This document shows positions 25,500 to 59,091 of a stretch of 64,000 nt of DNA, one piece after another. Location of the stretch: contig QPGO01000041.1 in assembly GCA_008632985.1 (NCBI GenBank), positions 248,001-312,000 of the forward strand. The letters are read 5' to 3'. Under the pieces are notes generated by a model. That model was not told the DNA's origin and ran no database searches. It saw only the letters and a list, made by a program, of their open reading frames with translations. Source of the DNA: Psammoneis japonica (lineage: Eukaryota). The stretch's first letter is position 1. Each line of letters begins with the position of its first letter. The position numbers and the translations under genes are program-made.

Positions 25500-28400
25500 C
25501 AGTGTGATCATTGCGCTCGCATCATGCAGTGCTGCATGGATGGTGCAAGTGCTGATGTGCTAGCTGGAGTGGCCTCAACAGACATCCTGCCCCCTCACAC
25601 CACCTTTCACCTTTGCATTCCTCATGTCTCACGGGCATCAAGGATGTGTTGAAACAAGAGTGCGTCACCAAATTTGCTTCCTGTTCTTTGCAGCTGTCCC
25701 CTCCTTGGCTTTGTCCTGTCTCCTGCCAGCGCTCCCATGCCACAGTCATTCTGCATCTGCACATGATGGTGTGATGTTTTGCTCATTGCGCTGTCCCTTG
25801 CAACCACTCTCACTCATGACCACAACCACATCGTTTGTTCCATGTCATGACCTTGTCTCTCTTTTGCTTGCCACGCCAGGTTTTGTTTGCGTTGTTGTCG
25901 GAGCTCCATGCACTCACTGACTCAGTCTCTGTGTCCTGCATTGTTCTCCCTCCCCTCTGCTCTTCTCTTGCCTTTGCTTGCTGCTGTCATTGTCATGGTG
26001 TCAGATGAGCCCTGCATTTTGTGTCTTGTGTCTTGTGAAGCAATGGTGTTTGTGTTTTTGCAGCAATGTTGTTTTAAAATTCCACGCTCACACTCAGTTT
26101 TGAAAGTTTGAATGATTTGAAATGACTTGAAAGAATCATCCAGTCATTTGGGTTTTGGGAGACAAGTGTGGGCAGCTGCTGTCTGAACAATCTTTCATGG
26201 AATTTGCTCTGGAAACAGTCTGTCAATCAGTGTGATTGGTGCATTTGGAAAAAACACGTGAGTGCTGGAAAGACTCCAAGTCTTTTTCATCCACTGAAAT
26301 TGCACTGACAAACACCCCAATGCACAGACAGGCAGAATTTGTTTGAGCAGCAGCTGTCCAGACACACCCCCCAGTTTTGCATGTGGTGTGTCTGCAGCCA
26401 GTTGGTCAATTTCTCATTCTTTGTCATGTTGATGTGCTCTCGTTGAGATGGAAATTTTCACAGTCTTGCTGCCACACACACCTTTTTTTTCAATGCTCTG
26501 GGACTTCAATCTCTAGAATCTGCTTGATGCCCTCACAACCACATTTTCTTTTTGGTGTGTTGCAACAGTGCTGCCACAAAAACATGCGAGCTGCCCCCTG
26601 GCCATCCTTGTGCTGTCAACCACCACTCCAATGCTGGCAGTGCTCTTGGTCATGGTCATGCAGGCAAATCTCTTTCTCAATCTCAGCCACAAGAGCCCAG
26701 CAGGAGGAGCCCTCAGAGAAACCAAGGCTCTGCCGCCAGAGCTGCTGCAGCACTGGCTGGCAAACCAGCAGCCTCTGTGCTGCCACTGCTGCTGCCTCCA
26801 TCAACAACAAAGCCACTGCCCACTGCGCCAATGTGGCTGATGACCCCCACTCTCCAGTCATTCAACCAAAAGATCTTGAGCTTCTCATGCATGTTGGCAC
26901 AAAATTCCTGTGATTGTTGTTGCATTCCCTTGCACCCAATGGAGTCTCCCACAGCCATCCCAAGACAATTGAGTGCTTGTGCTGTCACACAGATGGCTCC
27001 CTGGTCTCTGCAGGGGGGTGTGGTGGCTGGTCCAAAGCCAGTCATGTCAGAAAGAAAAGGGGCCAGCATGTTGACACAAGACAAGGCCTTTGCTCCCCAA
27101 CCAAGGTTGTTGTTGGCTCTCCAGGGACACAATGGAGTCACCCAAGGCCATCCAAAGACAACTTGGTGCTTGCATTGTTGCACAGAAAGCTCCCTTGTCC
27201 CTGGAGGTGGGGTGGCTGGTGGCTGTGCCAAAGCCAGTCATGTCAGAAAGAAAAGGGGCTGCGTTGAAACAAGACAAGGCTTTTGATTCCCAAACATGGT
27301 TGTTTCTGGCTCCCCAGGGACACAATGGACTGGAGTCACCCAAGGCTGTCAAAAGACAACTGGGCACTTGCACTGTCACACAGAAAGCTTCCTTGTTTCT
27401 GCAGGTGGGGTGGCCATGTGCCAAAGCCAGTCATGTCTGTGTTGACACAAGACAAGGCTTTTGATTCCCAACCATGGTTGTTTCTGGCTCCCCTGGGACA
27501 CAATGGAGTCACCCAAGGCCATCCAAAGACAACTGGGCACTTGCACTGTCACCCCTGTCTCTGCAGGTGGGGTGGCTGGATGAGTGCAGGCCACCGGCCA
27601 CATCAGAAAGAAAAGGAGCTGTGTGGGCCCAACACAAGAAGGCCTTTCCCACCCTGCTGTTGTTGTTGTTGCCTCCTCTGGGACCCAATGGAGTCTCATG
27701 TGCCCATCCCAAAACAACCAACAAGTGCTTGCACTGTCACAAAGATGGCTCTCTTGTCTTTGCAGGTTGGTTGGCTGGGCCAAACCCAGTCATGTCAGAA
27801 AGACAAGGTGCTGCGTTGATGCAAGACAAGGCCTTTGCTTCACAACCATTGTTGTTGTTGGCTCCCCTGTGATCCAATGGAGTCGCTAAAAGCCATCCCA
27901 AGAGAACTGAGCACTTGCGCTGTCAAACAGATGGCTTTCTTGTCTCTGCATGTGGGGTGGCTCTGGGCCAAGCCCAGTCATGTCAGAGAGACAAAGGGCT
28001 GCATTGACACAAGGCCTTTGCTTCCCAACCATTGTTGTTGTTGTGTCTTCTGGGACCCAATGAAGTCATCAAAAGCCATCCCAAGACAACTGAGCACTTG
28101 CGCTGTCACACAGATGGCTTTCTTGTCTCTGCAGGTTGGCTGGATGGGCGGGCCAGTGCCAGTCATGTCAGAAAGAAAAGGGGATGTGTTGACACAAGAC
28201 AAGGCCTTTGCTCCTCAACCAAGGATGTTGTTGGCTCCTCTGGAACCCAATGGAGTCATCCAAGGCCATCCCAAGACAATGGAGCACCACTTGCACTGTC
28301 ACACAGATGGTTTGCTTGTCTCTTCAGGTTGGCTGGTGGGCCAAAGCCAGTCATGTCAGAAAGAAAAAGGGCTGCGTTGACACAAGACAAGGCTTTTGCC

Positions 28401-31400
28401 AACAAACCATGGTTGTTGGCACGTCCCTGGCAACCCACTGGAGTCCTCCAATGCCATCCCAAGACAACTGTGCACCTCCTTTGCCACATCTGTGGGCCTG
28501 ATGCTTCCACATCTTGTGCGGCTGGGCATTTTCCGGTTTGTGGAGCCATGCCTTGGGCTGCTGCTGCCCACCACGACAAGGCTTGCAGCGACCATTTTTT
28601 GCAGTTTGCATGTCTCATCCAAGGCTCCACTGGAGTCTGCCAATGCTGTCCCAAGACAGCTGCACATCTCCTTTGCCACATCTGTGGGCCTCATGCTTCC
28701 ACACCTTGTGGACCTGGGCATCTTCTTGTTTGTGGAGCAATCACGCAAGAGACTGCTGCTGCACAAGACAAGGCTTGCAGCTTCCCAAATCAAGAGTGCT
28801 GCAATGATGCCACAATTGGACCAACCACTCAACAACTGCAGACTGAGTGCATTTGGGGTGTGTGTCATGCACGCAGCAACTCAAACCAGTGTGCACCAAT
28901 GGCAACAATGATGATCTGGCTTGGCATTTGGCAAATGTTTGTCAGGACATGGGGACACCACCACATGCTCCATTCCAGGTTCTCAAGTGGTGTTGGCATC
29001 TGCATTGTCCACTGTCCACCCAGCAAGCCTGTTGCTCCAAATGGAGACACCAAAACATGTCATGAAACTTGCCACCAGAATGTTGAGTGCCAAATTCCTT
29101 GGGCAGTGCATCCACCAGAGTGGGGTTGTCAACATGTCAGAGAGACATGGCCAAGTTGCCCACAGCTGGTTCTGGCTGTGGCATTGTCATTGTCACCATC
29201 ATTCAGCATTGTCTCCAGCTCATTGCATGGTGCACAAAACATCCCTCGCCCATCAAAACAATGCCCACATCACCACCCACCCTGTCGTCATCCACAAAGC
29301 TGCTGACCTGCTTGCTGAGAACAGGATGGGTGTGCTCAAAGGTGAAACCAAGGGCGACAAAGTTAACCAAGTTGTGTCATTTCATGCAAAAGCAGATTTT
29401 TGGGTTCTGGTTGCCTCCAAAATGGGGCACAAAATGGTGGCAGATCAAGGGCATTGCATTTGCTGGTGAGCAGGAGCCGCACATGTTGCACGAGCTTCAC
29501 CACCTGAATTTGAAAGAGCTCTCCTGCCTCCTCTTGAGCAATCCCAAACCAGACTCCACATGATTTGCCAGGTTGCTGGAGCAACCCCTGCTCAGCATGC
29601 CAAACAATTGCAGAAGCTGTGTTTTGTCAGGGGTGGTGTTGACAATCCACCCTCAAGAACTTGGGCCACACTGATCAGTTGAACATGAAGTGAGAACCCT
29701 TTGGAACAGAGGATGCACGGCCAACAAAATGTGGCCATTGTCTTCATTTGCAGCAACGTTGCAGGGAAGATGAAACATTCTTCCCAGTCTCTGTCATCTG
29801 GCAAAAAATTGGCTTTCCAAGCAGCGGCGGCCATTGCTTGCTTCATGAGATGCAAAGACCATGCCTTGGCCAGCTTCTTTGGCAAATGCAACAAAAACCA
29901 AAGCAATTCTTCCTGCTGTTCCCAGCGCTTCTCTTCCTGCAGCACCAGAAATGTGCTTGCCAAAGTCATTGTCAGGGTTCAGGCTAAAATGGAAAAAAGA
30001 AGAACAATGGGGATGACATTGAAAATGTTGGTGGAGAGCATGCTTGTTGTTGTTGTTGTCGTTGTTCTTAACAAGTCTAAAATGAGTGCAAATGAGCTGC
30101 ACAGATGACTTCGCATGATGCTTTTGGGCCATGTGCCGCCCTTGCAGCCATTGCTGTGATTTTTGACAAAAATGCTCACAACCCACAAAATCAATTTTTC
30201 TTGTCTGCAAAGAGGCATTTTCAAGCAGTCAGCGCCTCTGAGATTGAGGTCAAACTGCAGAAAATGCTGCCAGTGACAGTCAAATGACAACAGCTGGCCG
30301 GAACCCTTCTCTCAGACACACATTTTCATCGTTTTGCATGCACAGGGCAAAGTGCAGTTTGTCAATGAGACAGATTGAATGCTTTGCAACAGTCCAGGAG
30401 GCATCCACCACACAGAAGGATGTTGAGTGTGAGCAATGGCAAGAGTCAACAAGCACAATTGACACCATTTAACTGCAAAAGTGGGTTTGATCCAGGACTT
30501 GGTGAGCACGCAGGCAGTTCTCTCTGCAAGGGCTCCAAGCACCAAAAATGATTGCTGCAGTGATGAGGGTGGCTTTGTCAAAGAGCAATGTCACAAAGTG
30601 GTGTAGACTGGTGCTTTTGATGGCCAGTTGCAGCTGGGAGTCATCTCCCATCTTGCAAGTTGTCTGCTGCAACTGATCCACCCAACAAAACGTGAATCTG
30701 TGGTGCAGTCGTTGGACTCCCAGTCTCCAAAAAGTGTGTGCATTTATCCAAGCACTGTGGGCATTGTCTGCACAGCAGATGAGTGAAAGAAGCTAATGAG
30801 CACAAACAAACTTGCCTGCATCATCTCCCCTCTTGCCAACATTTACCTTGACTGCTGCTCCCCACAACCCAGTGTCTAGAAAACAGTCTTCTGGCATTGA
30901 AGTGGTGGTCTTAATTTTGATTGCACTGCCAAGGCCTGTGACCATTGTTCACATTGTGTGTGAGATGAGAAAACCACCCAAAAGAGTTTACATTGCATCC
31001 AAGAATTTCTCATGAGCTTGCAAGTGATGATCTCATGCTGAAAAGTGCAAGAAAGCAATCAATCCTTCTGCTGAGCCAAAATGACACCATGCCTGCACCA
31101 AATGAGAAAAGCAATGCCTCTTGTGAGCATGTGTTGCATTGTGAAAAGCACTGCAATGACAAGCAACCTTTTCACACTCATCTTGGTTGTTTCCCACATT
31201 GCCATCACTGCAGCTCTCCTGGCAGACCTGAAAAAAAGGACACGACATGTCCACACTTCAACCATGATCTCCCGACTGACCGTTGCAATGACTCTGCCTG
31301 CAAAGCTCTCTCACACAACAACCAAAGCAAAAACACCATGTCTCAAGAGTTTTGTCAACCAAGACATTGTGCGAAGCTTGCTCGAGTGTGTTTCAGAAAC

Positions 31401-33850
31401 GTGTTGCCAAGCTCACTTTCCTTCCTCAGTCAAAGACTCATTTTTGCTCACAAGCAGCAAAAGCTTCAATGTCTTTGTGCAGCTTGCCAGCCACGTGTGT
31501 CAATGATGAGATGCATTTGAAACATTGTGACTTTGGACACAACAACACAAGCAGCAACATGCATCAAATGCAACAGCAGCTTGCCACGGCCCACCATTTC
31601 CAGATCGGCAACAAAAAAGCAAAGAAAGGAGGCAGCTTTGTTTGGCATGCAGAGAAAACACCAATGTGAGCCACACAGGTGACTCAAACAAAGGTAAAGA
31701 TCTGACAAATGGAAGGGAAAAAAGCTGCTCTTGTCAAGTTTAAAGTGCAGACAGAACAAGCCACACAGGTGGCTTGAAATGAGCAAAAAAGATTCAATTG
31801 TTTGTGACTTCAAAACCATCAAAAAACAAAACAAATGTCCACCACACAAACAGAAGATCTGTGGAAACAATCAGCACACATGTGAAAAATTCATTTGTTG
31901 ACAAGTGACACTCTGGTCAAGCATGGAAACATGTTGCAGATGCTGGAGAGGGTTGAAGTTGGTGAGCTGAGTTTGGCAATTTCTGCTGAAAACATGCCAA
32001 GCTCTGAGCAGAATCTGGCTCATTTTTGCACCCAGCCACCTCAAGTGCAATGGTGCCAGCAATCACATGCCAGACTGGCCTTGGTTGGTTGCCCCCCCCC
32101 CCAAAAGCCAAAAAAAGAACCCCCCCCNCCCCAGCAGCATCATGAACAGAGAAAAGGGAAACCACAGCAGCAAGGTTGCCCAGCAGTTGTGGAGCATTTT
32201 CACAGTCTTAAAACAGGCACAAGCAAAAGCCCCCCAACATGAAAAATCCCATTTGTGAGTGCAACAACTCTGCACTCACGCAATTGTTCAGAAAGGTGTT
32301 GTGACATTCTTGGTTGATGAGCAGTCATTGCAAAAACAATGCAAAAAAAAAAGAGCTCTCCATGAAGTGTGCTTGTGCTGCAATCAATTGACAATGCTCA
32401 GAAACAAAAGGGTGTGATTTGTTGACAATGTAGAGTGACAGAGATTTGCACTTTGAAATGACACACTTTTGTTTTTGGAGCTGAGCACGCTGTGCAACAT
32501 GCACAGACCTGCTGGCCAGCTCCAGCTCTGGGGCAAAATGAGGTCCATCAAGCCTGACCTTCCACGCAGCTTTTGGCACCAGAATTTTTTGTCATCACCT
32601 GCAAGGGCTCACAAATTTTGGCTTCTGGCAAGCATTGTTCATTGCTCCAGATGATGAACAAAAATGTGCACTCTGCATGCACTTCCTTGTGCACAAAGGC
32701 TTTCACTTTGTCAAAACAGCAGCAAATGGCCATGTGTCAGGCCAACTCAGAGGACATTCCATGATTGGATGCTCAGCACTCTCTTGGCAATCAGCACCTG
32801 TGTGTTTGCAGGTCTGAGTCCTGTGCACTGTCAATCTGTTGCACGTGGTGTCTTGTGCTTTTGTCGGTGGGAGATGCCAGTGAGAACACCTCCCCCTTCC
32901 CTGCAACACTTGGTCAGTTGCTGATCTGGCCATTTCTCTGGAGTGCAGCTGTCATGTGAGTCATGTGCATGTGCAACAAATGCAGCTGACTGGCCCTTTG
33001 GATGTGCTTCATTGGGCAAGAGTTGGAGTGCTTGTCACTTGTGACTGGAGCTGCCAGAAAGTGTGCTGCCAACTGCACTGCATGCAAAGCTGGTTGACAA
33101 CTTGGCCTGCTCTTTGCTGGGCTGGAGTGCAGTGCTTGTTGCTGACTTGGTCTGTTTGCTGGAGTGCAGTTGTTGTGCAACACAAGTGTGCAATGAGCAC
33201 AATTTATTGGCCCTTTGGTTGCAGTGCAAGTGTGCAACAAACACAACTTGTTGTTGGCCCTTTCAGTTTTCACCACATTGGGTGAGGAAATCAACTTTTG
33301 TTGGCTGTGTTGGAGTGCAAGATTCTTTGTTGACTGGGGAGCTGGTGACAATGTGCAAGTCGCACCCAGGTCCCAAAGCACAGTGGCTGGCCTTTTTTGA
33401 TCAACTCATTTGATTTGTTTCCTTTGGTGTCAATGCCAACAAAAAAGCAAGGTCAAAATTCAAGCTGAAAGCAGCTGCAATCTTGGCAAGGCAAGCTGTG
33501 ATCTCAGAAAGACTGGGTGGCTCAACTTTGGCAACATTGTGCACAACAGCCATCAGAATGCCAAGCCCCTGAACAGATCACAAAAACAAGTTTGAGATTG
33601 CACAAGATTGCTGCATCTCAAGGTTTGATTGTCAAACTTGCTTGTCAAAATGAGCCCACTCTTCTGTGGCAAAGAAATGGTGGGAGAAGAGCAGTTTGTC
33701 GCTTCTTTCAATCAGAGCTTTGACTGAGGGTGTGTGAATCTCATCACACTCAATCCACTGTGCACTCATTGAGTGAAAAGTTTTGAGAGAAACAGTGATT
33801 TTCTCTTTGCCCAAACTGCTGCACTCAATGGGTGTTCACGGCCCGTCCGG
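25500..33850. other. Hypermutated block 3
   Basis: About 8 kb nearly devoid of TA and CG; contains a tandem array and decayed coding-like remnants. Confidence 0.85.
26925..28790. repeat. Degenerate tandem array, unit ~170-197 bp, about 8 similar units plus 2 divergent ones
   Basis: CCAGTCATGTCAG(AAAGAAAAGG)...ACAAGACAAGGC recurs near 27039, 27236, 27428, 27600, 27788, 27976, 28161 and 28348. Confidence 0.85.
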
Positions 33851-33990: not shown

Positions 33991-35688
33991 TCACTCTTCA
34001 TCTTCGCCGTCCAAATGGCTTAGACCCAACGAGTCCTTGAGTACGCCAAGTACTTCCAACATGCTCGGACGCCGCATTTCGACTGGATCGTAGTAAGCAT
34101 TTCTTCTCCTAAAGCTCTCGCGTCCGTACTCAAGGGTTTTGACCTCGGGCCGTTCTTCAATAAAATATGTTTCCATTTCTCCGATCCCCTTGACCTTCAC
34201 TATTCCTCGTTTGTCGCTGGAGAACTCGTCAGGAGAGAGCGTATCAACAACAGCTTGCGATACATGTACCTTGCCAGCAATTCCTGTAGATTCCATTCGA
34301 GACGCTACATTGACCGTGTCGCCCCAAATGTCATACAAGAATCGCTGTGTTCCCACGACACCAGCGATCACAGGCCCTGTGTTCACCCCTACGCGCATAG
34401 CCAAAGGCTGATCTGGGTGCTTTTCGTTGTCTTCGACTAGGATTTTGATGATATCGCAGGCAAAATGACAAACTGCAGCACATGAAGAGGCTGGACTTGT
34501 GCATCCGGGGATGCAGGTGACCATGTAGCAATCTCCAATCGTTTTGAGCTTGTTAAGTCCATAATATTCCAAACGGCTGTCGAAGCGACTAAAGATTCGA
34601 TTCAAGAAGGAGACAACTTCAATGGGCTGCAGCTTATTGCTCAAGCTCGTAAATCCAACGATATCAGCAAAGAGGACAGTGGCTTGATGGAAATGATCTG
34701 CAATGTGTCCTGGTTCATCTCGCAGGCGTTCAGCGATTTCTCGAGGTAACATATTGAACAATAGAGCCTCGGCCGATTTCTTTTCGACAGCAAGATTTGT
34801 AGCCTCAATTTCTGATGTAATATCGTGAATGAATCCAACGAGAAGGTCCGACCCCGGCACTACGTGGACTCCCACACGACAAGGAAATTCCGACCCATCT
34901 TTTCGGCGTGCCATTAGAGCTCTCAGTTTTCCAGCCACATGGGATTGTCCATCACGTTTGTGAAATCTTCTCATGTAGTCTGCGTGATGTTCTGCGTGCC
35001 CACCGCCGCAAATCAAGGCAACATTTTTACCGATCATTTCGTCGGCCTCATAGCCAAAGGCTGTAACAGTGGCTTCGTTCACTCTCATAATGATTCCATT
35101 CTTATCTGTAAGGACCATGCAGTCGAATGAGACAGCCAAAATAGACTTATTGAGTTCAAATTCCCGTTCGAGCTTCTCCATTTGCTGCTTCTGAAAAGTT
35201 AGATCATGGCAATACGCCACGAACAACTTGGATCCTCTTTCTTCCACGATCTTTATACTGACGGCCACTGAAAACTCAGATCCATCCTTTCGACGAGCCG
35301 GCAAATCTCTCATTTTGTGTAGGATTTGCTGCATTACTTGGGGAGACGCCTTCTGAAGATACGATGTGTGCCTTGGTCCGTGCATTCCGCCAATAACTTT
35401 TGAAATATTTTGGCCAATCAAAGATTCGTCGTTCCAACCAAACATTGTTTGAGCAGCTGGGTTCGTCAAACGAATAAAACCATCTTGATCTGTGACAAAA
35501 ACGGCGTCTTCACTGGCTTCAACAATGTGCTGGGCCAAAGTATCCTCGACAAGATTATTCGCCTCACCAAGACAGGCCTTTTTAACGGTTTCTGCCCCGT
35601 ATTTCAAGAAGAGACCTTGTAGTTCGTTTTGCAGTTCTTTGGGGACAGCTTCATTTGCGCTGCCATTCTCTGTGGTGGAAGACATCAT
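33991..35688 (-). CDS. Soluble class III nucleotidyl (probably adenylate) cyclase with two FixL-like PAS domains
   Basis: PAS x2 (RRKDGSEF); LLFNMLPREIAERL coil; LFADIVGFT, KLKTIGDCYM, YDIWGDTVNVASRMES. Confidence 0.92.
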   Translation of the reverse strand: MMSSTTENGSANEAVPKELQNELQGLFLKYGAETVKKACLGEANNLVEDTLAQHIVEASEDAVFVTDQDGFIRLTNPAAQTMFGWNDESLIGQNISKVIGGMHGPRHTSYLQKASPQVMQQILHKMRDLPARRKDGSEFSVAVSIKIVEERGSKLFVAYCHDLTFQKQQMEKLEREFELNKSILAVSFDCMVLTDKNGIIMRVNEATVTAFGYEADEMIGKNVALICGGGHAEHHADYMRRFHKRDGQSHVAGKLRALMARRKDGSEFPCRVGVHVVPGSDLLVGFIHDITSEIEATNLAVEKKSAEALLFNMLPREIAERLRDEPGHIADHFHQATVLFADIVGFTSLSNKLQPIEVVSFLNRIFSRFDSRLEYYGLNKLKTIGDCYMVTCIPGCTSPASSCAAVCHFACDIIKILVEDNEKHPDQPLAMRVGVNTGPVIAGVVGTQRFLYDIWGDTVNVASRMESTGIAGKVHVSQAVVDTLSPDEFSSDKRGIVKVKGIGEMETYFIEERPEVKTLEYGRESFRRRNAYYDPVEMRRPSMLEVLGVLKDSLGLSHLDGEDEE

Positions 35689-35799
35689 TAATGATAGGAA
35701 GCGTCTTTATCTCCTCATGGTGCACGCAACACTGGAACACGCAAAACCGATAACCCTGTCTGAAACGAACGCCGCGCCGTCGTCGCGATGGAGTGGTCG

Positions 35800-38700
35800 G
35801 ACAGACGTGTGTTCGCATTTTAGCACAGCTGCAGAGAAGAGCACTGGGGGTCCTGCACCTGTGAGTTGCTCCACAGGAGTCAAAATGTGGGACAAAGCTG
35901 CAGCCCCATGGGAGATGCCCCCAAGCAGACCAGCTGGACTCATTTCAACAGTGGTGTGACAAGGTTGCCACCAAGGTGCTTTCAGGAGAGCTCAAGTGAA
36001 GAAGAAGCATGCTGTGGCTCAACAGAGCTCTGCGCAAAACCGCCTCTTTGTTGTCCCCTGGAGCTGGTGCAGATTGCTCAAGGGAGTGTCGCTGCATGAC
36101 TTTCAAGCAAGTTGGAGCTTCTTGATCAGAGATCATCACAGGACCACCAACAGTCTGTTTTTGATGCATCTGCTGCAGGAAGCTCCCCCAGTCATCTCTG
36201 TCCTGCTGATGATCTGCAACATGGTGTCCATGCAGGCATTTGCACACAAAATGGTCTGGATGTTGCAGAAAAAGGGCATTGGAGTGGCTGGGCATTGACC
36301 CAGACATTGCCACAGCAGCAAGAATGAGAAATGACATCAAGGAGGCCCATGAATGGAGCACAGCCTGTGTGACGAGCATCAGCGTCAGAGCTGTTGGCAG
36401 TGCATGTTGATCTTGTGGGGAGAGCAACCCTGCCTGTGTTGCAATCACTCTGCTGTCTTTTGCAGGGACACTCTAGAACAGCAAGCATTGGCCAGGGCCT
36501 GCCTTGACATTTGTTGAGAACAGCCACATGTCAAACCACCAATTTCTTGCTCTTTGACAACTGGGTGGCAGGACAAGCAGCATGTTGTAACTGGATTGCA
36601 ACCTCTTGAGCATTTTTCCCTCATTTCAAGCTTTTGCAGGGCATGTGGGCTAATTGCAAGCACATGGTTGCACTCAGCCAGTTGCTTCAGTGAGTCAAAC
36701 ACAAGGTGGATTGACCACAGCAAGCCTTTGTGTGTGGCAGTTGCTGAGGGAGGTCTCTCTCCAGCTGCGCTGCCAGACTGGATCTTGAATGTGAGCTCTC
36801 TGAGCTGTCTGTTTCTGTTGCCCCCAACTTTGATTTGTCAATGGTGGCTTGCCTGCTGTGTTTGCTGTTGCTGGATCTGCTGGTGTTTCAGGCCATTTGC
36901 AGGCTTTCACAAAGAACACATGATGAGACTGGATGCCTGTGGCCCCTTGCAGGCTTCATTCTTGTGCCACCCTTTTGCCAAAGTTGAGCTCTCATTTGGC
37001 TGTTGGATCCTGTCTGAGGTCTTGCAAGAGAGAGTCATTTGTCCCTTTTGCCAAAGCCTTTGACTTGTCCTTGATGTTGCCAACTCATGAGTGCCCAGCT
37101 GTTGCAAAGAACGTGTCCAGGGCTTGGTCTGAAGGAAAACAGCTGAGGTGTGGTGAAAGGTGCCAGAGCATGGCAGTTGAGCTTGTTCATGCAGGTGGCT
37201 TGAGAGTTGGTGAATGGTGCCAAAGAACCAGATGAGAGTGCAGCCATGCAGGTGGCTCAGGCCATGCAAGATGAGGCTGAATGTTGACTGACTGGCAGAC
37301 ACTCCCTGCCCCACAGTCCATGGAGCACAGACAAGCACAAGTGCCTGCCACACACAGCTCTTTTGTGCTGTCACAGCTGCTGCATCTTGAAAGCCAAAGC
37401 AATGCATCACAGTGCAGAGGTTTTTAGAAAGACTTTTGAGGCAGACCCAGCATCAATGTTGAAGAGCTGCCTCTTTGACTGGTGCTTTTGTCATGGTCAA
37501 ACTCAACAAAGCTTGCATCACAGGCAACAAGAGCAGCATTGATGAGCACAACTGGTGGTGGGTTCTTTTGTTCCCAAGGTGTGGTCAAAGCTTCCAGTGC
37601 TGCATGTGGGCCAAATGGGCCAATCTTGATGCAGCAGACTCAATCTTGTTGACAGTGCTGCATCCTTGTGTGGTGCAGCACATCATGGTGTTGGAGCAAC
37701 TGAGACTGACAGCAGAAACAAGAACAGCAGCTTTGCTTCTTGTCAACCCTGCAGCCTTTCCCAGTGGTCAAGAAGGCAGAGGGTGTTCCTGTGGCTGCCA
37801 CACTGCACATGCACTCTGCTGTCTCTAACAGCAATCTGTCATCTCACAGCTCTCTCTCAAAATCAACACACTTGCATGTGGGTGCAATGGCAAAAAATGT
37901 CAGCAGCAACTGGCACAATCTAGGCAGAAACAGGGCAGGAAGTGATGCAACAGCTCTCATTGCTCTGTGGAGTGTCAGCTCAACACAAAGATGGACTCTC
38001 TCTGTTTTGGATGCAGTGCATGACACTTTGCTCAACAAAGATCTTCAAAGCCCTTCACAAAAGCCTGAGAACTCTTAAATGAAAAACACTTTGTGCCGCA
38101 AACACAGGCAGATGTTGTTGCCACATCAGAAGGAGTGATGGAGCCTTGAGCCAAAGAGGGAGTGCCAGTGGTTTTTGTCAGAGGTGCTGCTGGAGTGAGT
38201 TGTGGCTGCTGCAGTGTCAACATGAGCTCTGGGGGGGGGGGGTTGAAGTGTTGGCACCCTTGGATGAGACTCCTTTTGGCAACAGCACAGTTTTTGGTTG
38301 GGCTGGGGGCAGCTCCCAACTTGTGCAGGTGGCAAACTCCAGGAAACTTCTTTCTGGGGTGCGGTGCAGTGGGCTGCAATCTGCGTGGCAACTGGGGGTT
38401 GCAAGGTGAGCAGCAGCACACTGTGCTCAAAAAACAAACACAAATAAAAGCAGAACAAATTGCAAAAAGTAGAAATTACAAGATTGGATTTTACACTGTG
38501 ATTTGGGGATTCTCTGAAGGAGTTCTCAATGGCTCAAAGCATTGGAGCTGCTCCCACAGAGTGAAGGCCATTTGGAGAATATAATCAGGACAACAAATCC
38601 AGATGCAATCAACATTGACATTTCATGTGTCAACATCATCTGTTGATTGCACCTGCAATTTTAGACTTCTGACCAATTCTGTGTGATTGATCTGCTGACC

Positions 38701-41700
38701 ATCATGCACATCCATGATTGCAGTGCGATCTGCACACATGACAACACATGATTATGAACATGCACAGTTTTGTCTGCTCAACAATGCACACTGCATTTGG
38801 CTCCCCAATTGCACATTAGAGTCATTTGTCAAATGGAGTTGTTCGATGGATGTTGATGGCTTCAATGACATCACCACATTTGATCTGTGCTGTGCCGCTG
38901 GCATGGCTGAGCAGTTGTCATGACACAAGGCCTAGCATGGTGGGGCTGTTCTAATTTTTAAGAATCTTTCTCCAGCAGGATCTTCTCTCCCACTCGTCTG
39001 CATGTGTGTGGAATGCACTGTGCATTCTCTCCAGCATCATTTTTGTTTGTTGCATCTTGTTTTTGTTTCTGGACAAACTTCCAGCTAGCAACATGTTGGA
39101 CATTGAAGATCATGTCTCTGTCAAAGACCAATTGTCCTGGCACAGCTTGCACAGCAGTGTGACATGTCAAACATGCTGCAAAGGCCGCTGCTGACAGCAT
39201 TCCTTCAAATGGATTCTGGTCATCCAGGGGTGCATTTTTTGCAAATCAAATGTGTGCAGCATGTTGCCCAGTGCTTGATGCATGTGCTCAATTGTGGTGT
39301 TTGCTTGTGGATTTTGTGCAGTTGTGGGCTTGCACTCAATGCCACAATCTTCTTGGACCATTGTTCTAAATTGGTGCCCAACAAGCTCACTTCCATGATC
39401 ACAAGTGATCAACGATGGCCAAGGATGTCCACTTGACTGTGCTCTTTCTAACAACCCAACAACAGTCATGGATTTCTCACTTGGAATTTCCACTGCTTCA
39501 AACCATCCTGTTGCCGGATCTGTCAGTGTCAGATGTTTCAGAGCCAGGAGTTTCTTTTTGCTCTTGTGACGTGTCTTGTGTGGACCAACAAGATCCACAC
39601 ATGGTCTTTCCCATGGCACTGATTCTGCACACTTGAGGGCAAATGTCCACATTTCTTTTGTTTCTTCTTGAATTTCTGGCACATCTCACATTTCCATGCA
39701 TGTTTTTGCATGTCATCATGTGAGGCAGACCACCACAAGTGTCAGGAGATTGTCTCTTCAGCTCTGTTCATGCCAGGGTGCAAAAGGCACATGTGACACC
39801 AATTGGTCACTGACTTTTGCAACATCTGGTCTTTTGCTTGCCTCCACAAAAAGTCTTTGCACAACATGTTGTGTCTGACAATTTGGAGAGAATTCTTCAC
39901 CCCATTTTGTTCAACATCAAGAACTTTGCATGTTGATGGAAAGACATTGTCACATGATTTAGGAGCAATCTTGCCAGCCAGGTCTTCATTGCTGAGGTTT
40001 TCAAAAAGATTCCATTTTCTTCACAGTGAGTCAGCTGATTGCATCTGTGACAACATTTGCTTTGCCCTCAAGGTGAATTGTTTCGTGATGGCACTCTTCT
40101 GTTGTTGGTCACCAACACATGACTCCATCTGTTGTGAAATTCTTGTGGATGAGATTCTTGTGATTCACGCACACATTGTCTGTTGGCCAAACAGCACATT
40201 CCAGAATTCCTCAAGTGTCTCCACTGTGGACAGAAGCTCTTTTTCTGTTGCAGCACACTGTTTCTGTGCTCCACTTAACTTGCAACTGCAAAAGGCAACA
40301 GGTTGGCTGTTTCGCATTGTGACTGCTCCCAACTGAGAAACACTTGCGTTGGCATGTTGTGTCTCAAAAGGAACGTTGAAATTCAAGTGTGGCAACCATG
40401 TGTCTTTTGACACGATCCACTTCACATTTTTCAAGGCTTTTTGTTCTGTGCTTGTCCATGGCCACTTGACCTTAGATGAGGTGAGTTTGGCCAAAGGAGC
40501 AAGAACATGAGATCATTGAGGCTGCATGTCTTGACAATGGCAGATCACACCAATGAAGCATTGCAGCTTCTTGTGAGTTGCAGACATTGCAATTGCTTGA
40601 ACAGCCTCCACTTTCTCAGGCATTGTCTGATGCCATTTTGTGCAATGTGAAAGCCCAGATCACGGCCCACTTCTGGCTTGGCAAAAAATGACTTTTTGGC
40701 ATTGACCTTCAACCTGGCTTGTTTGATCCATGTGAATGTTGTTTCGAGCTTCCTGAGATGATCTTTGAAGTCACCTTTTGTCAGGCACATGCATCAATGT
40801 GAGTTCTGACAAACTCCAATCCTGCCACAAGCTTGCTCGCATGCTCCTGAAAAAAAAGTCCAGAACTCCACAGATTCCTGTGGGGAGTCTGCAGCACTCA
40901 CACTTGCCCTGAAGCATCACAATTGTGCACAAGCAATGTGCATGTGGTGTCAATTTGACATGGCAGCATCCCATGTTCAAATCCAATGAGGTTGCATGCA
41001 TGAAGCCCTCCAGCTTCTGCAGCACATCCTGAATTTTTGGCAAAGGATGCAGAGCACACATCAGCCAATTGTCAAGGTCATGGCAGTTGGACAGAAACCA
41101 AACTCCGCCATTTTTCTTGGACTGAGTGAAGGTTGGAGCTGCCCATTCAGAATGGTTTGTTTTTCTTGGGACTCCTGGTTTGCACAGTCTGTCCACCTCT
41201 TTCTGAGTGGTTGCCTCCAAGGCACTTGTGGATCTGGAAACAGTTTTGCATGGTGCAATTTTGCACCAGGTTTCAATGCTGAGTTGACTGGTTTTCCCAT
41301 CCATTTGCCCAGAGAACCATCAAAAAGAGGTTGAAACCTTTTTAGCAAGAAGCTCAGTTGCTTCTGTTCTTCTGGGGTTAGATGAGTCACTGTGGCAGTC
41401 ACATCATTTGGATTTGCAGCATGACAGTTAGCATCAAGGATCCGATTGATCCTGTCATTAAGACTGTTCACGGCATGGGATTCTTCAATGTGATTGGCAA
41501 TCAGCTTGAACACCTTGGCATCAAAGAGTGTGCCAACATTCTTCAGGGGTGCAGCTGCATCTTCCCACTTGATCTCTTCATTCACAAAGTCAAGCATGAT
41601 GCCCAGGACATTGAGTTGTGCCCCACAATCACATTGCATCTTGAAGAAGTCATTGCATGGAGTTGTTGACATGTGCTGTTTTCTTGATCAGTTTGTGTTT

Positions 41701-43850
41701 GTCAAATTCAGGTGGCGAGAATTGAGTGGCACATCAACCATCAGTCATAAAGAGCCCACCCTTTGTTTCCCAAGTTTTGGTGGTGGATTTCTCATTTCTC
41801 AACTCCCACATGAATTTGCACAAAATCACAGTTGACGATGTTCTGCCACAGAGAAAAATGCACGGCGGCTTGTTTTTCTCCTTTCAAAAGGAAGTGTTCA
41901 CACAAGCAATGACTGCTGAACCACAATTGTTTTTTTTAATTTTGTCATCAGTCGCATGTTTCACATGCACATTTCTGTGTGTGATCTTCCAAAAAATTGT
42001 TCCAGACTTGCTGTTTTGCGAAACCCCAGATGTTTTGTTTGACAAAATTGTGGGAACATCAATGCACCAGGCACATTCTTCAATGTCTGAAGAATGCACC
42101 TGGCTGAGTTTGCACATTCGCAAAATTGCCTCATTCTCTGTTGGCAATCATTGGTGCATTCATTGTCTGACAATTTCACTGCAGAGCTCACATGCAGAAT
42201 TCTGTGGGCCCAATGTCACACGGATTCCAACCTGCATCTGGAATGAGTCCAATGCACTGTGCTCAAAGAATGAGTGCAAACAAAAGCAGAACAAATCACG
42301 AAAAATGGAAATCACAAGATTGGATTTTACACTGTGATTTTGGGATTCTCTGAAGGAGCTCTCAATGGCCAAAAGCACTGGTGCTGCTCCCACAGAGCAA
42401 AGGCCATTCAGAGAATCCAATCAGGACAACAGATTGTCCAGATGCAATTGGCATTGGTGTCTTGTGTGTCAACATCATCTGTCAATCACACCCACAATTT
42501 CAGACTTCCAACCAATTCTGTGTGATCGATCTGACTGTCGTTCGCATCCACAACTGTCATGTGGTTGACACACATGACAACACATGATTGTGAGTGTGCA
42601 CAATTTCATTTGCTTGACAATGGTGCATGCTGCAGCAGGAAGAGGGGTGGACAGGAGGACATCTTTTGTTTGCTGTGGCTGGAGAGAAGTTGAGTGCAGT
42701 GCGCTGGGGTCGCACACAAAAGCACAAGCTTGGCACTTTGCATTCATTGTTCTGTTTGCAAAGTGCCAGTCACATGTTCAGCAGCAAGCATGATGACCTC
42801 TGCATGCCATTGTTCCTTCACAAGCCTTGATCCTTGAAATGCAGTGTGTGGCAACATGCCCCTCAGCATGGGATGACTTTGGATCTGTGCAATCCCACGA
42901 GGAAACTCTGTCCGCCAGTGCATTTTGGGGGGTGTCAGCACAGATTAACAGACTTTTGCCCTTTGCTCAGAGCAAGTGGGTGGGGCCAGAGTCTTAAAAG
43001 CAATGCAGGACCCTCATTGGTTGTCCATGCAAATGACGCATTTGGGCAAAATGTGCCATTGACAACACAACATGCAGTGGGACATTCCCATCCAAAATGC
43101 CACCACTGTTTTTCCAATGACCCCTGGTTGATTTTCTTTTAAGAACACAGCGTCAAACATTGTGGCACAGGTGCTTGTCAAACAGGCACATGAAGGAAAA
43201 TTGATTGGAAGTGCATGCTGCGCAGTGCCAGCTGCAAGCCAGTGGCATTCCATGGCTTCTGAGCACCGGCACATGCACACAGAAACAAGTTTGTTGCAGT
43301 TGGGGACCACGAATCAATTGCCGACATGCTTTTTTCCACGCAAAACATGCTGTTTTTCTCAGTGAGTGGGTCCGTCATTCCTGCGCAGATGGTGGATCAC
43401 TCTCAGGTCATGAGCTGTGCTTTTGCTGCAAGCAAGCGGGGCCCATGCACCACACAGCGAAACAACAAAAACTCTTCAGCATGCTGTTGTCAACACTGGT
43501 GGCAAGCATTTTCAATGTAAACACCTTCGCTCTGTTGGTGCAAATGGCGCATTCATCGTCATTTTCCTCATCGCTTTCGTTGGTTTCATCATCCGACATT
43601 TCGTGTGTGGCATGGCAAACACTCTGCTTGCGCAACGACCTTGCGTGAGATGCACCAGCAAAGTGCTGACACCTGCTGCCTTGTGCACGGCTGGCATGTC
43701 TTTGGACGCAACAAGCACCCTCCACAATGGCCTCTGGCGCCGATGGCACCCGATCGAAGAAGGTGCCCGCCCTCTTCCTGGCAAGCGAAACTCTCGTCCT
43801 TGCACGCGGCTTGCCACTGCCCTGTGCATGTTTTAGGCAGTGGCAACGAC
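35800..43850. other. Hypermutated block 4
   Basis: TA/CG depletion; includes a decayed Gypsy element with both LTRs. Confidence 0.85.
38417..42634 (-). mobile_element. Decayed Ty3/Gypsy LTR retrotransposon (RT-RNaseH-integrase; gag/protease region largely lost)
   Basis: Direct LTRs 38417-38795 and 42253-42634; 4-bp TSD GCAG; PBS-like TGG after the 5' LTR; PPT GGGGAG before the 3' LTR. RT: SEWAAPTF, LDLNMGCCHV. RNaseH: QLGAV..PVAFCS.KL..TEKELLS. Integrase: VDLVGP, DPATGWFE, NPQAN. Confidence 0.92.
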
Positions 43851-44171
43851 TCACCACTACACTGTTCACCACCAGCAGAACAGTGCTCCTCCTCTCACCA
43901 GGATCACGATTCTCCTACGGCAGTGTTGGGGGGTCTTACGTCTTAGTGAGTGGGTCATTTCCACGTGCCGGTAGACAGAGGATCACTCTCAATTTTATGC
44001 TATCTCGTAGAATCAGTACCAGTTCCTCGTAGCCAGAAATAGCATGATAGACATAGAGACCGCCACTGCGATTCTCGCTGCCTGTACCGGTACACTCTAC
44101 ACTGTAAACACCCAAGGCGAGGAGTCGCAAACTGTCTCTGTGATACAAAAAAATGTAAAGATTGAAAAAAA

Positions 44172-52138: not shown

Positions 52139-55100
52139 TCTTGCTTCTATGTTACGGCAGGGGAGAACTGCTTTAGTTTTGACCCGGGTGAACCTTTTGT
52201 TGAGACGAAAGTTGCAAGTTGCGAAGGATCTTGCTGTGAAAGGTTCAAACGGATGTATGAGAGATGCAGAGATGCACTAAGCACTGAGCATAGAGCATAC
52301 TACTCGTAGTACCATGCTGAGGTGGTGGCGATGTTTTGGTTGGTCGTCGGAGAGAATTTTTGGTGGCTTTTCACGAGCCAGCTTTTTTAGTCGTCCGAGT
52401 CGATACACCCCCCCTCCCCGCGTCCGCTTGCATCTTTCTTGATTCTTGCATGATGTGCAGGCATGTTGATGTGTGCGTTGTGTGTGGATCAACAATGCGC
52501 TGTCTTGCCAGCTTTGTGTTGTTGTGGTCATGGCATTTGCGCTCAAATGCACCCTCAATGTCCCCACAGTCATGGCAGCACACTGCGGCTCTTGGGATGA
52601 CAGCCAAGCTCTCCTGTGTTGTTTGGTGAGCTGCTTTTGCTGGAAACCCATTGTTGTGTTGCACTGGTTGAATGGAGTCTAAAATTTGTCACAAGAATGG
52701 GGCAAAGACTCCATTTCTGAAAACACCCTTTCATGCACATTCTGGAGTCTTTTTGCACAGCTTCAGCGCAGCAGGTGCCACGCCGCTCTCTGCCTTGAGT
52801 CCATGTCTGTTGGTCTGTCACATTGTGCCAGGGTCGCATGCAGGCGATGTGTTCTGGTGCTCTTGTGGATGGATGGAGCATCTGCCACCAGGAATTTAAA
52901 ACACACACACAAGTCAAAAAATTTTCCATGAGGGTCATGGATTCAATGTGTGATTTCAAATCCACCTCCTGCCAGTGCGGCAACAATCCACTTTCTGACC
53001 ATGAGCACCATGGCACATGGCACTTGAGTCATTTCAAGAGTGCACCACAGTGCTTTCCTCCCACATTTGGCCATCTTCAATGAATGGTTGGATTGCAAAG
53101 CACTTCATTGACAGACAAGAGAGCTCTCGTTCCTTGATTTGAGCTCAGCGATTGCACAGAATGAAGAGATGGACCCCAGCTGATCCATTGCTCTGTCTTG
53201 GAAGCTCACATCCCTCAAAGCATCAGCTTGGGGTCATTCTTTCATCCCTGTTTCATGTGGTGAGCAATCCATTCTAGCCACCTGCAATGATTCAAATGAC
53301 CCACCAACAAGCTTGGAGGAGATGGACGAGACAAGTTTCAACCAAGAGATGTGTCACTCCACCAATGTGCATGTGGTGGATCCCCCAAGGGGTGTCCATG
53401 TTAGAGGACATGCTTGTGGCAAAAGCTGATGATCCATTTTTGTCCTGCATTGCTTCTGTGCAATGAAGAGAACAGAAAGTCCACAAGCCCCACAAACAAA
53501 GGTGTGAGCTGAGCAGGTGCATGTTCTTGAAATTTGCTGCATTTTTGGTGGCTCCTTGATTCTCTTCAATGCCATTGCAGAGAATCAACTCCAGTTTTGA
53601 CATGCCCAAACCAACTGCAAATGCGCACTTTCTGACTTCTCTCTTCTTTTCATTGGGAGCAGCACAAAAACTGCAGTTGCCAACAACTGTGGTGGTCTTC
53701 TGATGCAATTGCTTGCACAAGTGCTCCTTGATCACCACCTCCTCTCTCCTCCTTGTGGGTGTCATTTTGCTGATGCTGCTTCAGGCTCACATCAGAAGTG
53801 GCTTTTTCTGTGAGACATGGTTTGCTTTTTTGTGATTTTCTGTTTCAGCTGCAATGTTGGCAACTTTGATTGAGGATGCTGTGATCATGGGTCAAAAAAG
53901 ATGCAGGACACCTTGGATGACAATGCTGTGCTTGTTTGTTGACACCCCTGAATGCCCCAGTTGCAGCGTCAGCTTTTTTTTTCATTTTTGTGCTGACAGT
54001 GTTGTCCCAGCAGCCTTGATGAGAGAACAAAATGTGTTTGACACAAGGGTGTGTCATTGGTCAAAGCCACATGCTGAGTGCCAGCAATTCATCCCAAGCA
54101 ACAGTGTCAGATGTGTCTTTTTTTTCAAGTTGCTGGATGCAAGGACACTGGGGGACCTCAAAACCAATCCCGATCCTCTCACAAAAAATGCCGGTGCACT
54201 TTTGCAAACTGGTGCATGATCAAAATGACAAAAATGCCATGTGTGATGAGCATCCACGAACAATTCTGACCATGAAACAACCATGGATTGGCCTGGAAAG
54301 TGGCGCATTGTTGAGCGTGTCAACAGACTTCTGTGTCCACCATTTGTTGCTGTGTTTTCAATGGTGGTTCCTTGGGCAGGTGCACATTTTGGGACTCCTG
54401 TTGAGGAGTTTTGTTCACAATGACATGTCCCACCATTCATTTCAAAGCACCATTCATTTCCTTTGATCACCCTTTCTCATGTTTTTCTTGTTTTCTCTCT
54501 CTTTCTCTATTTTCCACATGACTGGTTGGTGTTTTGGCAGGCTGCATCTGCATCATGTTTCCTTCTTTTCCAGCCCCTGGGTGTGCACTGCATTTGTTCA
54601 GAAGGCACTTTTCTCAGTGGCACAAGACACCACTCTTTCAATGTTTGAAACCAAGTCTTTGTTTTGGCAACCCTTTGGCCCATGACTCCTTTTTTCTGGC
54701 TCTTGATGAGGTTTCCTGCAAGTCCAGCAAGAGAAGCCCTTGCTCCAAGCTCTTTAGACAAGCTTGTTTTGGACTCTGTTTTTTGCAACAATGGACTCAC
54801 CTGAACTCTGTGTCTGCCTTCTTCTCTCTGTCCTTGTGATTTTGTGGCATGTTGCTTGTTGATGTGATGCTGGGTGGCGCTTTTGGTTTGTGTCATGTTG
54901 ACATTGAGCAATGAACAGCTGCACAAAGGAAACATGCTCGTGAGTTGTCATTTGACAAAAAAATTCTGCTTCTGGGACAATGCTTCCATGTTGCCTTGCG
55001 GATGTTCTCAGATTTTGCAGAAAAAGTGCTTGGTGCCAACTGACACACATGGCAATGTGCCTTGCAGACTGTGCTGATGTTCATTGTTTGGTTCATTGCA

Positions 55101-55402
55101 CAGATTTGTTGAGAAACAGAGTGGCGCCAGGTTCATTTGCATGTCATTTTTTGATGATGTGTTCATCAGAGGTGCATGGGTGGTCTTGTCATCCGCGCAT
55201 GTGCTTCCTTGTGCACAACCAATGTGCGAATGACAAAACAATTTGTGCACCTCTGGTGTTCATTGCATGTCACAAGAGTTTTGATGTTTCCCATGGCAGG
55301 CATGCAGGAATCCAAGGTTTCCCTCTGGAGTCATGCTCACCACGTGCTCTGACCCCTCTCATTCTTCTCCAAAGCCAGACTTTTTTAAATTGCAGACTCT
55401 GT

Positions 55403-55655
55403 CAAGTTGAGGATTGAAGCCGCACAAATGAGCATCAAGTTCTGCACGCGCACATGAAGAGCAGAAAAACAGGGTTTGTCAAGTGGAAATCAGTGTGGTC
55501 AAAACCAGCGGTGCCATGGGAGCTGGTGCCGCTTGGGTGGGTTTCCTCCCACTGACAACCAGTGCACTTTCTGAGTTTGCAAACCCTGTTTTTCTGCTCT
55601 TCATGCATGTGCATGGAACTTGATGCTCATTCAAGTGGCTTCATTCCTCAACTTG
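55403..55655. mobile_element. MITE-like element with ~76-bp terminal inverted repeats
   Basis: 55403-55478 CAAGTTGAGG...GAAGAGCAGAAAAACAGGGTTTG is the reverse complement of 55580-55655, with mismatches mainly at TG/CA/CG. Confidence 0.8.
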
Positions 55656-58400: not shown

Positions 58401-58774
58401 CCTCAAGACCTCAATGTGATGGATTCAGGGGGGTGCTGTCATGAGCTTTGTCATCACAGTCATCACAATTGCAGCTTTCTTGTTGTCTCTCATCATTGTC
58501 CCAATTGTCACAATCACAATCATCATCTCCACACATCAACATGATTTCATCTTCTGGAGTGCAGCTTCTGCTGTGCATCACAAATGTTGCAATTTTTTGT
58601 GAGAATGCACACGAACACTCGCTTGCACAAAGCATGCTGTTAGACTGCACCCTGGAAGAAGTGCAACACACAGCTGCCAATGAGAGTCAATGTATCACGG
58701 CGACGTGTTGCAGCCTTTAAATGTCACAAAGGGCGTGACAAAATAACCTTTTGTCTGCATGCACACTGCATTGT

Positions 58775-58848
58775 GAATTCACAGCGGAGTGGTACATCGT
58801 AACCACACTGGGCAGGAGGCCAGGGGTTCGAAACCCGAGTGGGAGTTG
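58775..58848 (+). promoter_or_regulatory. tRNA-derived Pol III A-box/B-box module
   Basis: A-box CAGCGGAGTGG (58782-92) and B-box GGTTCGAAACC (58825-35) at tRNA-like spacing; no good cloverleaf. Confidence 0.55.
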
Positions 58849-59091
58849 TCTGCAGCAACGTTGATCACTGTCGAACGCGTAAAACTCTGTGCAGTTCTGT
58901 GTGTTCCTTCGTACGCACCCACACTGTTCCGCCAAAACCGTGCAGTGTCAGTGCACGTTAGCAAAGAGCCGCATGGACGCGTGACACATGGGGAGGAGTG
59001 CAACACACAGCTGCTAATGAGAGTCAATGCATCACGGCGACGTGTTACAGCCTTTAAATGTCACAAAGGTTGTTTTTGTCACGCCCTTTGT

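Follow-up and report, generated by a model that had tools for sequence, protein, structure and literature searches.

Loss of TA and CG from dead transposon blocks on a diatom contig, with TA converted preferentially where a pyrimidine follows the adenine

What kind of process can empty a transposon of nearly all its TA dinucleotides, and by what rule does it choose its sites? The question is raised by a 64-kb window of Psammoneis japonica DNA (the whole stretch of 64,000 nucleotides analyzed here; contig QPGO01000041.1 of assembly GCA_008632985.1, positions 248,001 to 312,000), and above all by the degenerate pol gene (protease, reverse transcriptase [RT], RNase H and integrase) of a Ty3/gypsy long terminal repeat (LTR) retrotransposon within it. 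An earlier note on this DNA had proposed that conserved tyrosine codons of the element became Cys or His codons through a change aimed at the A of TAY on either strand (Y, C or T; R, A or G), and that YTAR sites were largely spared. We find that six blocks of the window are dead transposon and repeat DNA of a diatom-like nuclear genome, in which TA and CG have been turned into TG or CA by transitions following integration. The conversion of TA is a change of A to G after a 5′ T, affecting either strand about equally and proceeding about 3- to 14-fold faster before C or T, with 3′ neighbors ranked TAC = TAT > TAG > TAA. Neighboring genes are approached to about 100 bp at most before the signature ends.

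Block borders were set with a two-state hidden Markov model (HMM) on pyrimidine-purine (YR) steps. The blocks total 28.4 kb, and the remaining 35.5 kb, "normal DNA," served as the comparator. The observed/expected ratio (O/E) in the six blocks is 0.04 for TA, 0.17 for CG, 1.87 for CA and 1.85 for TG, against 0.55, 0.98, 1.22 and 1.20 in normal DNA, while G+C is equal in the two (about 0.47 to 0.49). CG is thus depleted alongside TA within the same blocks, a point absent from the earlier note. Block edges are sharp, with TA/YR rising from 0.010 to 0.099–0.178 within 100 bp. Blocks alternate with host genes, mutation being confined to foreign or repeat DNA and the host genes spared; a cyclase gene that lies untouched in a 2-kb island, with block 3 on one side and block 4 on the other, illustrates this sharp confinement.

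The polarity of change was taken from pol itself, which we aligned codon by codon to 25 homologs, reading consensus columns as the ancestral state. The tblastn matches of these homologs run from 41943 down to 38831 across several frames. None of the 28 Tyr-consensus columns still holds Tyr: 13 are Cys (TGY), 10 are His (CAY), three are Phe, one is Gln and one is Arg, and at least 23 of the 28 changes are transitions (at most five are not). The codons on which the original proposal was built are all in place, namely the TGC TGC of GCCHV at 40968 and 40965 (consensus Tyr in 23 of 25 homologs), AFCS at 40290, EDCG at 39346 and ITCD at 39403, together with the His codons of GPH at 39580 and FMHAT at 40998, which are preceded by A and G, respectively. 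Arginine fared similarly, with no CGN codon left at 38 Arg-consensus columns, where the residues seen include Gln (7), His (6), Cys (5), Trp (4) and a stop (1). Of the well-supported columns, 182 carry a substitution, and 87 of these can be accounted for as TA>TG (30), TA>CA (22), CG>CA (15), CG>TG (12) or two such steps (8). Changes at TA are nearly all of the A>G or T>C type, the single-step TA>TG and TA>CA events numbering 52 among these 182 columns.

Since transitions keep the purine or pyrimidine class of a base, each ancestral site still shows its original R/Y context, by which survivors can be sorted. The blocks retain 83 TA, of which 59 are YTAR (CTAA/TTAG, 26; TTAA, 25; CTAG, 8), including all five in the interval 39167–41304; the corresponding figure in normal DNA is 206 of 1289 (Fisher test, p = 1.9 × 10−26). 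The earlier observation that surviving sites are mostly TTAA, CTAA, TTAG and CTAG is therefore borne out, as are the exceptions that it listed, GTAG at 30603 and TTAC at 30843. A count of all NTAN tetramers, which had been suggested as a check, gives clearly unequal depletion: block versus normal counts are 1/392 for RTAY, 23/691 for one-sided sites and 59/206 for YTAR. Expressed as a share of YR steps in the blocks, TA persists at 1 of 1761 R-YR-Y, 23 of 3638 one-sided and 59 of 1540 Y-YR-R steps, and survival relative to 60 intact-like metagenome relatives is approximately 0.0018, 0.024 and 0.145, respectively. Survival graded in this way (RTAY << one-sided << YTAR), and close to a product rule, fits independent mutation of the A on each strand. 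A Poisson fit puts the cumulative per-strand exposure of T-A-x at 2.7–2.8 for C, 2.6–2.8 for T, 0.8–1.2 for G and 0.3–0.9 for A. The sparing of YTAR is relative to other contexts, as YTAR itself is depleted (about 15–35% survive), and in a 199-bp repeat pair, one copy has six TA, including three YTAR, every one of which has been converted in its partner.

Survival fits "A before Y" and "A two bases after R" alike, so the direction of change is needed to separate them. Tyr-consensus codons that follow a pyrimidine became Cys six times and His once, whereas those that follow a purine became Cys seven times and His nine times. Ile codons that now read ATG or ACA gave no TG and eight CA in the RTAR context. 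With Tyr and Ile ATA codons pooled, TG:CA outcomes are 6:1 at YTAY, 9:11 at RTAY and 0:8 at RTAR under a loose consensus filter (Fisher test of YTAY versus RTAR, p = 0.0014), and 5:1, 8:9 and 0:6 under a strict one (p = 0.015). Pooled outcomes at YTAY and RTAR match the T-A-Y strand 14 to 1. The blocks as a whole agree, for in the folded Y-YR-Y context TG outnumbers CA by 2099 to 1375, compared with 1490 to 1378 in normal DNA. Measured against intact relatives as a proxy, the gain of CA in this context (0.101) is less than half the loss of TA (0.261), and TA outcomes there are consequently TG-biased even if every CG became TG. The direction of changes and the TG excess at Y-YR-Y together identify the A of T-A-Y as the preferred substrate. 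Seven polarized TAR to TGR events, four of them in YTAR, were also found. The proposal of a defined target thus stands in part: survival, polarized direction and the Y-YR-Y excess support T-A-Y on either strand as a target favored by a factor of roughly 3 to 14, though not as an absolute rule.

The 5′ base is more strictly constrained. After a 5′ T, the A share of purines is 0.007–0.048 in blocks compared with 0.29–0.36 in normal DNA, whereas after A or G it is nearly constant (0.51–0.63 versus 0.54–0.60), and A after a 5′ C is not lost. Because the A share falls after T alone, a 5′ T is required. Within the blocks, A-A-Y and G-A-Y have an A share of 0.50–0.51, against 0.54–0.60 in normal DNA and intact relatives, with no such drop at A-A-R or G-A-R; this may reflect weak off-motif V-A-Y activity or a mere difference in composition. 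Both strands are equally affected, as seen in the self-complementary R-YR-Y context, where the blocks have 826 TG and 843 CA.

The loss of CG is a second process, co-located with the first yet separable from it. Its marks are those of CpG decay at 5-methylcytosine (5mC), with CG O/E at 0.17 in blocks against 0.98 in normal DNA and Arg CGN codons turned into codons for Cys, Trp, His, Gln or stop. Its flank effect is mild, G-C-G being slowest, and the Arg CGN codons sorted by flank are too few for any context effect to show. The segment 59251–60250 has lost TA but kept CG, and TA loss can therefore run without CG loss. This segment, which is bordered by related repeats (58654–59069 and 60103–60335), may be a younger or unmethylated insertion.

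The two LTRs of the element date the change. They are direct repeats of 79% identity (blastn self-comparison). Of 376 aligned positions 75 differ, and YR steps account for 49 of the differences, with 19 TG/CA doublets among them; transitions (19) and transversions (7) make up the remainder. Each TG/CA doublet needs two independent changes of a TA or CG ancestor, so the conversions postdate the separation of the LTRs and were much faster than background. To judge from these sequences, TA and CG conversion occurred after integration. The LTRs are also unequally mutated (nine versus one TA kept), and exposure thus varies over a few hundred bases in one element. We used the pair for timing alone and rejected it for flank-specific outcomes, as a TG/CA doublet does not reveal whether its ancestor was TA or CG. 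Flank outcomes from the LTR that retains TA are mixed, and some apparent YTAR or "wrong-strand" changes in it may be secondary CA>TA mutations.

The sequence itself can be recovered elsewhere. A public sequencing run contains 67% of the 31-mers sampled from 38400–42650, and five of the six listed contig pieces from the run that cover the blocks (~55× depth) match the window with 0 to 3 substitutions, the sixth (42329–43092) having 22. Run contigs at least 99% alike number 195 of 1362. Run-derived contigs differ from the window by several small indels. A depth of up to ~30,000 over 42114–42547 was rejected as a copy number because the figure sums whole-contig depths. As the 31-mers and contigs reproduce the sequence, and as Tyr-free relatives exist in other assemblies, we treat the pattern as real. 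Two such homologs from other assemblies, P0143 and P0144, are devoid of Tyr; at the place of the GYYH of intact relatives stand GCCH and GHHH, and AYLDD is replaced by ACIDD. Among the 150 best representatives from a library of 1.84 billion proteins, 11 are Tyr-free with raised Cys and His, and the median Tyr content of the rest is 3.7%. P0143, P0144 and the 11 Tyr-free gypsy RT representatives carry the same footprint in other families and possibly in other hosts. At the DNA level, we kept 80 of 549 confirmed metagenome loci as a proxy for intact composition; none of the 80 is TA-poor (lowest TA O/E, 0.43), and hence they provide no DNA replicate of the context rule. About 12 of them (L027, L070, L061, L064, L047 and others) are depleted in CG alone, with CG O/E of 0.04–0.2 and normal TA (0.04 and 0.73 in L027). 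To judge from these relatives, this group of retroelements often shows CpG decay by itself and rarely TA loss.

To our knowledge, no eukaryote was known to mutate the A:T pairs of invading DNA on purpose before a 2026 preprint on the chlorarachniophyte Bigelowiella natans. According to the sections of that preprint available (Mettrop et al., bioRxiv 10.64898/2026.01.13.699255), two integrated viral regions acquired 231 de novo mutations, of which 230 are A>G or T>C changes at TpA; integrated nucleocytoplasmic large DNA virus (NCLDV) and virophage DNA is affected, and an ADAT2-like adenine deaminase is proposed. As far as those sections describe it, the likeness to our blocks is close: changes that are nearly exclusively A:T to G:C transitions, invariably at TpA and read as TpG or CpA by strand, confinement to foreign or repeat DNA with local boundaries, and clusters poor in TpA and rich in CpA+TpG, with reverse-transcriptase and DDE genes among their contents. 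Here, in contrast, the host is a diatom-like stramenopile, the targets are an LTR retrotransposon and repeat blocks, and the process is near saturation (TA O/E of 0.04, compared with a Rho of 0.45 in the B. natans NCLDV region). The 3′-neighbor rule (TAY > TAG > TAA) is defined here, and neither such a rule nor CpG loss in the same regions appears in the preprint sections available. Those sections report measured de novo mutation, whereas our window displays the end state alone. Our literature search, made outside subscription journals, found the B. natans preprint as the only report of TpA-directed hypermutation, and nothing that describes hypermutation at TpA, or at TpA and CpG together, for diatoms. 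On the strength of the sequence pattern, we read our results as TpA hypermutation in a second algal lineage, with a newly defined context rule and co-located CpG loss.

Other known systems resemble the blocks in part. Like repeat-induced point mutation (RIP), known from ascomycete fungi, the process makes irreversible, dinucleotide-specific transitions on both strands, is confined to repeats and destroys transposon open reading frames (ORFs). RIP converts CpA/TpG into TpA, and the polarity here is the opposite, with TpA erased and CpA/TpG accumulating (TA O/E of 0.04; CA/TG, 1.86). Diatom DNMT4 is described as related to the fungal RID enzyme (PMC9998398, in the part available). Decay of CpG at 5mC in methylated transposons makes the same CG to TG/CA changes in repeats, but it explains the CG half alone, TA loss being separate. 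Hyperediting of repeat-derived double-stranded RNA by ADAR likewise turns A into G and favors U on the 5′ side. ADAR, however, is known from animals only and favors G on the 3′ side; the blocks show a 3′ Y preference, in DNA that was changed after integration and on both strands. Editing of RNA or cDNA by ADAR or APOBEC would be expected to leave strand-asymmetric changes in a 3′ G (ADAR) or TC/CC (APOBEC) context, whereas outcomes in the blocks are symmetric, with 3′ Y preferred. TadA-derived adenine base editors share the 5′ T (pyrimidine) and the 3′ pyrimidine around the deaminated A; in the part of PMC12528748 available, ABE3.1 is YAC-preferring, and engineered TadA-8e A48E is YA-preferring with YAY > YAR. 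These editors are engineered bacterial tRNA deaminases aimed by Cas9, whereas here a 5′ C is not accepted and targeting is to repeats.

The explanation that we consider probable for the pattern as a whole, though well short of certain, combines T-A-Y-preferring TA conversion with separate CG loss, with an adenine deaminase and the deamination of methylcytosine acting as a genome defense. Adenine in chromosomal DNA would be deaminated to inosine at T-A-Y, and the candidate agent would be a deaminase with a TadA/ADAT2-like T-A-Y pocket directed to silenced repeats. With a T-A-Y preference on each strand, RTAY sites vanish, YTAY becomes YTGY, RTAR becomes RCAR and YTAR lingers. CG would be lost through deamination of methylated cytosine, and both losses jointly would form a defense that kills elements irreversibly, turning Tyr into Cys or His, and Arg into Cys, His, Gln, Trp or a stop. 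A TadA/ADAT2-like adenine deaminase is our best guess for the agent. The earlier note had likened the target to both TadA-type and DNA polymerase eta (Pol eta; WA) preferences. The TadA likeness is fair at the motif level (YAC and YAY > YAR in PMC12528748, in the part available). The Pol eta likeness is not supported, because A after A or G is barely altered (0.51–0.63 versus 0.54–0.60) and at least 23 of 28 Tyr-codon changes are transitions.

Several observations weigh against this explanation or against the rule beneath it. Flank and outcome are significantly associated when Tyr and Ile are pooled, but Tyr codons alone fall short (two-sided p = 0.089, loose filter; 0.33, strict), and the significant test depends on 8–9 inferred Ile ATA codons of one element. 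The flank rule, as first put for the cases cited, was that His occurs only after a purine and that pyrimidine-preceded codons give Cys; it holds for 9 of 10 His codons and for six of seven pyrimidine-preceded codons, with the same exception to both, a C-preceded His codon at 40539. With a proxy (host DNA or 35–58%-identical relatives) standing in for ancestral composition, survival can be given only approximately. The sequence pattern cannot separate deamination of A in T-A-Y from chemistry on the T of R-T-A on the opposite strand. In natural ADAT2/3 substrates the base 3′ of A34 varies, and T-A-Y therefore does not mark ADAT enzymes in general. The assembly may itself derive from the sample behind the public run, whose library type is not on record. 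Finally, eight units of the tandem array at 26914–28781 agree at almost every YR column on whether TG or CA is present, from which it follows that the array expanded or was homogenized when the DNA was already TA/CG-poor. To judge from this likeness, some TA/CG-poor DNA was amplified after mutation, and not all of it was mutated copy by copy. We had considered the array as an independent polarization set and dropped it, as units that share states do not give independent outcomes.

The target could instead be thymine. A TET/JBP-type dioxygenase or another thymine-modifying activity would oxidize the T of 5′-R-T-A-3′ in silenced repeats, and a product such as 5-formyluracil, which is mutagenic, would mispair with G and turn T into C. 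All flank counts fit this equally, R-T-A being the exact reverse complement of T-A-Y. The same enzyme class could act on 5mC and so link the TA and CG losses, given that T and 5mC would both be 5-methylpyrimidines before a purine at the two affected dinucleotides. A single shared enzyme is not required, though, by a window in which TA was lost without CG at 59251–60250, and the authors of the one experimentally characterized parallel read A deamination in the available sections on B. natans (bioRxiv 10.64898/2026.01.13.699255); we regard the thymine route as fairly improbable. Error-prone repair, as in phase 2 of somatic hypermutation, would tie the two losses together differently, with deamination of methyl-CpG in repeats recruiting mismatch or excision repair and, with it, a Pol eta/iota-like polymerase that misinserts G opposite T at WA. 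TA and CG losses are indeed co-located in five of six blocks, and the WA hotspot of Pol eta includes TA. What makes this proposal very improbable is that A after a 5′ A is not depleted (0.51–0.63 in blocks versus 0.555–0.60 in normal DNA; AA O/E, 1.27 versus 1.18), that TA is fully lost where CG is intact, and that transitions dominate (at least 23 of 28 Tyr columns are Cys or His) where many transversions would be expected. The TpA changes of B. natans, too, come without a C to T partner in the preprint sections available.

The signature might also stem from the elements or their RNA stage, either because retroelement RNA is selected to avoid UpA and CpG or because ADAR- or APOBEC-like editing strikes the RNA or cDNA prior to integration. 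This would recall the suppression of CpG and UpA that is common in RNA viruses; tandem-array units share TG/CA states, and relatives 90–99% alike are abundant in the public run, as such an account would have it. Against this, a pol with Tyr at 0 of 28 conserved positions, no Tyr in YxDD and a broken frame cannot be under selection, and the strand-symmetric outcomes (826 versus 843; 13 Cys versus 10 His) are unlike single-strand editing of RNA or cDNA. Blocks without retroelement domains carry the same signature, the LTRs have diverged at YR steps, and the 80 metagenome relatives described above include no TA-poor locus, all of which leaves an RNA-stage origin extremely improbable. Miscalling of modified bases in repeats as TG or CA, in sequencing or assembly, would suit the small indels between the listed contigs and the window, which are of the kind seen in long-read assembly, from a run whose library type is not recorded. 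It is scarcely credible given that exact 31-mers (a share of 0.67) and ~55× contigs reproduce the TA/CG-free sequence, that P0143 and P0144 come from other assemblies, and that the Tyr-free RT relatives belong to an independent protein collection.

A wider and doubtful proposal is one in which diatoms, and perhaps lineages of the stramenopile, alveolate and rhizarian (SAR) group generally, would have a RIP-like but chemically opposite defense, a repeat-directed T-A-Y adenine deaminase combined with CpG cytosine deamination that yields TA-free, CG-free transposons. Were this true, no natural DNA adenine deaminase of a eukaryote would have had a defined motif before it, and two distant algal groups would have yielded it independently; the Tyr-free RT relatives deposited publicly (11 of 150 representatives) would then be footprints of such a defense. 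The window displays the TpA signature taken to completion in transposons of a diatom-like genome. The 3′ rule adds strand-by-strand mechanistic information that could be checked on the 231 de novo B. natans mutations; it argues against ADAR-like and Pol eta-like agents, and guides the choice of oligonucleotides for candidate deaminases. Base editing is another field to which a naturally occurring adenine deaminase of DNA, if tight in its motif, would be of interest.

Features of the 64-kb window, in window coordinates
Feature	Position	Strand	Content	Basis
Degenerate Ty3/gypsy pol (protease-RT-RNase H-integrase)	38831..41943	-	frame broken	Pfam rve + RT_RNaseH_2; tblastn of 25 homologs
Studied interval: RT, RNase H, integrase core	39167..41304	-	TA 5 (all YTAR), CG 14, TG 258, CA 244	
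Low-coordinate LTR (3′ LTR relative to minus-strand pol)	38419..38786	.	9 TA kept	blastn self-match, alignment
High-coordinate LTR (5′ LTR relative to pol)	42255..42622	.	1 TA kept; TG/CA doublets are its main difference from the other LTR	blastn self-match, alignment
Hypermutated block 1	7895..10273	.	TA 7, CG 21, TG 284, CA 242; without recognizable domain	HMM, Pfam
Hypermutated block 2	17312..19170	.	TA 7, CG 27	HMM, counts, Pfam
Hypermutated block 3	25520..33837	.	8.3 kb; TA 21, CG 64, TG 966, CA 959; includes tandem array	HMM, counts
Hypermutated block 4	35824..43516	.	TA 35, CG 57; carries studied LTR retrotransposon	HMM, counts
Hypermutated block 5	52429..58691	.	TA 10, CG 65	HMM, counts
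Hypermutated block 6	60153..62070	.	TA 3, CG 33; CG depletion milder than in other blocks	HMM, counts
TA-lost, CG-kept segment	59251..60250	.	0-1 TA and 11-23 CG per 250 bp; G+C 0.50-0.58	
Integrase C-terminal remnant	59840-60103	-	within 59251-60250	
Tandem array	26914-28781		in block 3; period ~193 bp, ~8-10 units, 73-82% identity	
Intact host gene, PAS-PAS-adenylate/guanylate cyclase	33991..35706	-	2-kb island separating blocks 3 and 4; TA and CG normal	

Outside the 38.8–41.9 kb element, no credible Pfam domain was found among 233 stop-to-stop block ORFs, and five of the six blocks are without a Pfam match; RANK_CRD_2 and U83 matches in block ORFs are weak and were taken as chance. Only TGA stops remain in the blocks, and long ORFs overlap in all six frames (432 amino acids at 28008–29303; 356 at 57228–58295). 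With TAA and TAG gone and TGA alone left, these are false long ORFs that would mislead gene callers, and for annotation, TA/CG-free blocks yield such ORFs together with unrecognizable transposon proteins. Normal DNA consists of long, intron-poor host genes, among them those for an acyl-CoA oxidase, an M20 peptidase, an aldehyde dehydrogenase, a Kelch protein, the PAS-cyclase and a raffinose-synthase-like protein. The top matches of the acyl-CoA oxidase are 73% identical, and those named are raphid pennate diatoms, which is why we describe the host as diatom-like. A single N stands at 32128, within block 3. The raffinose-synthase-like gene (44166–46789) is read as two overlapping ORFs (44166–45368 and 45293–46789), possibly through an intron, a frameshift or an assembly indel.

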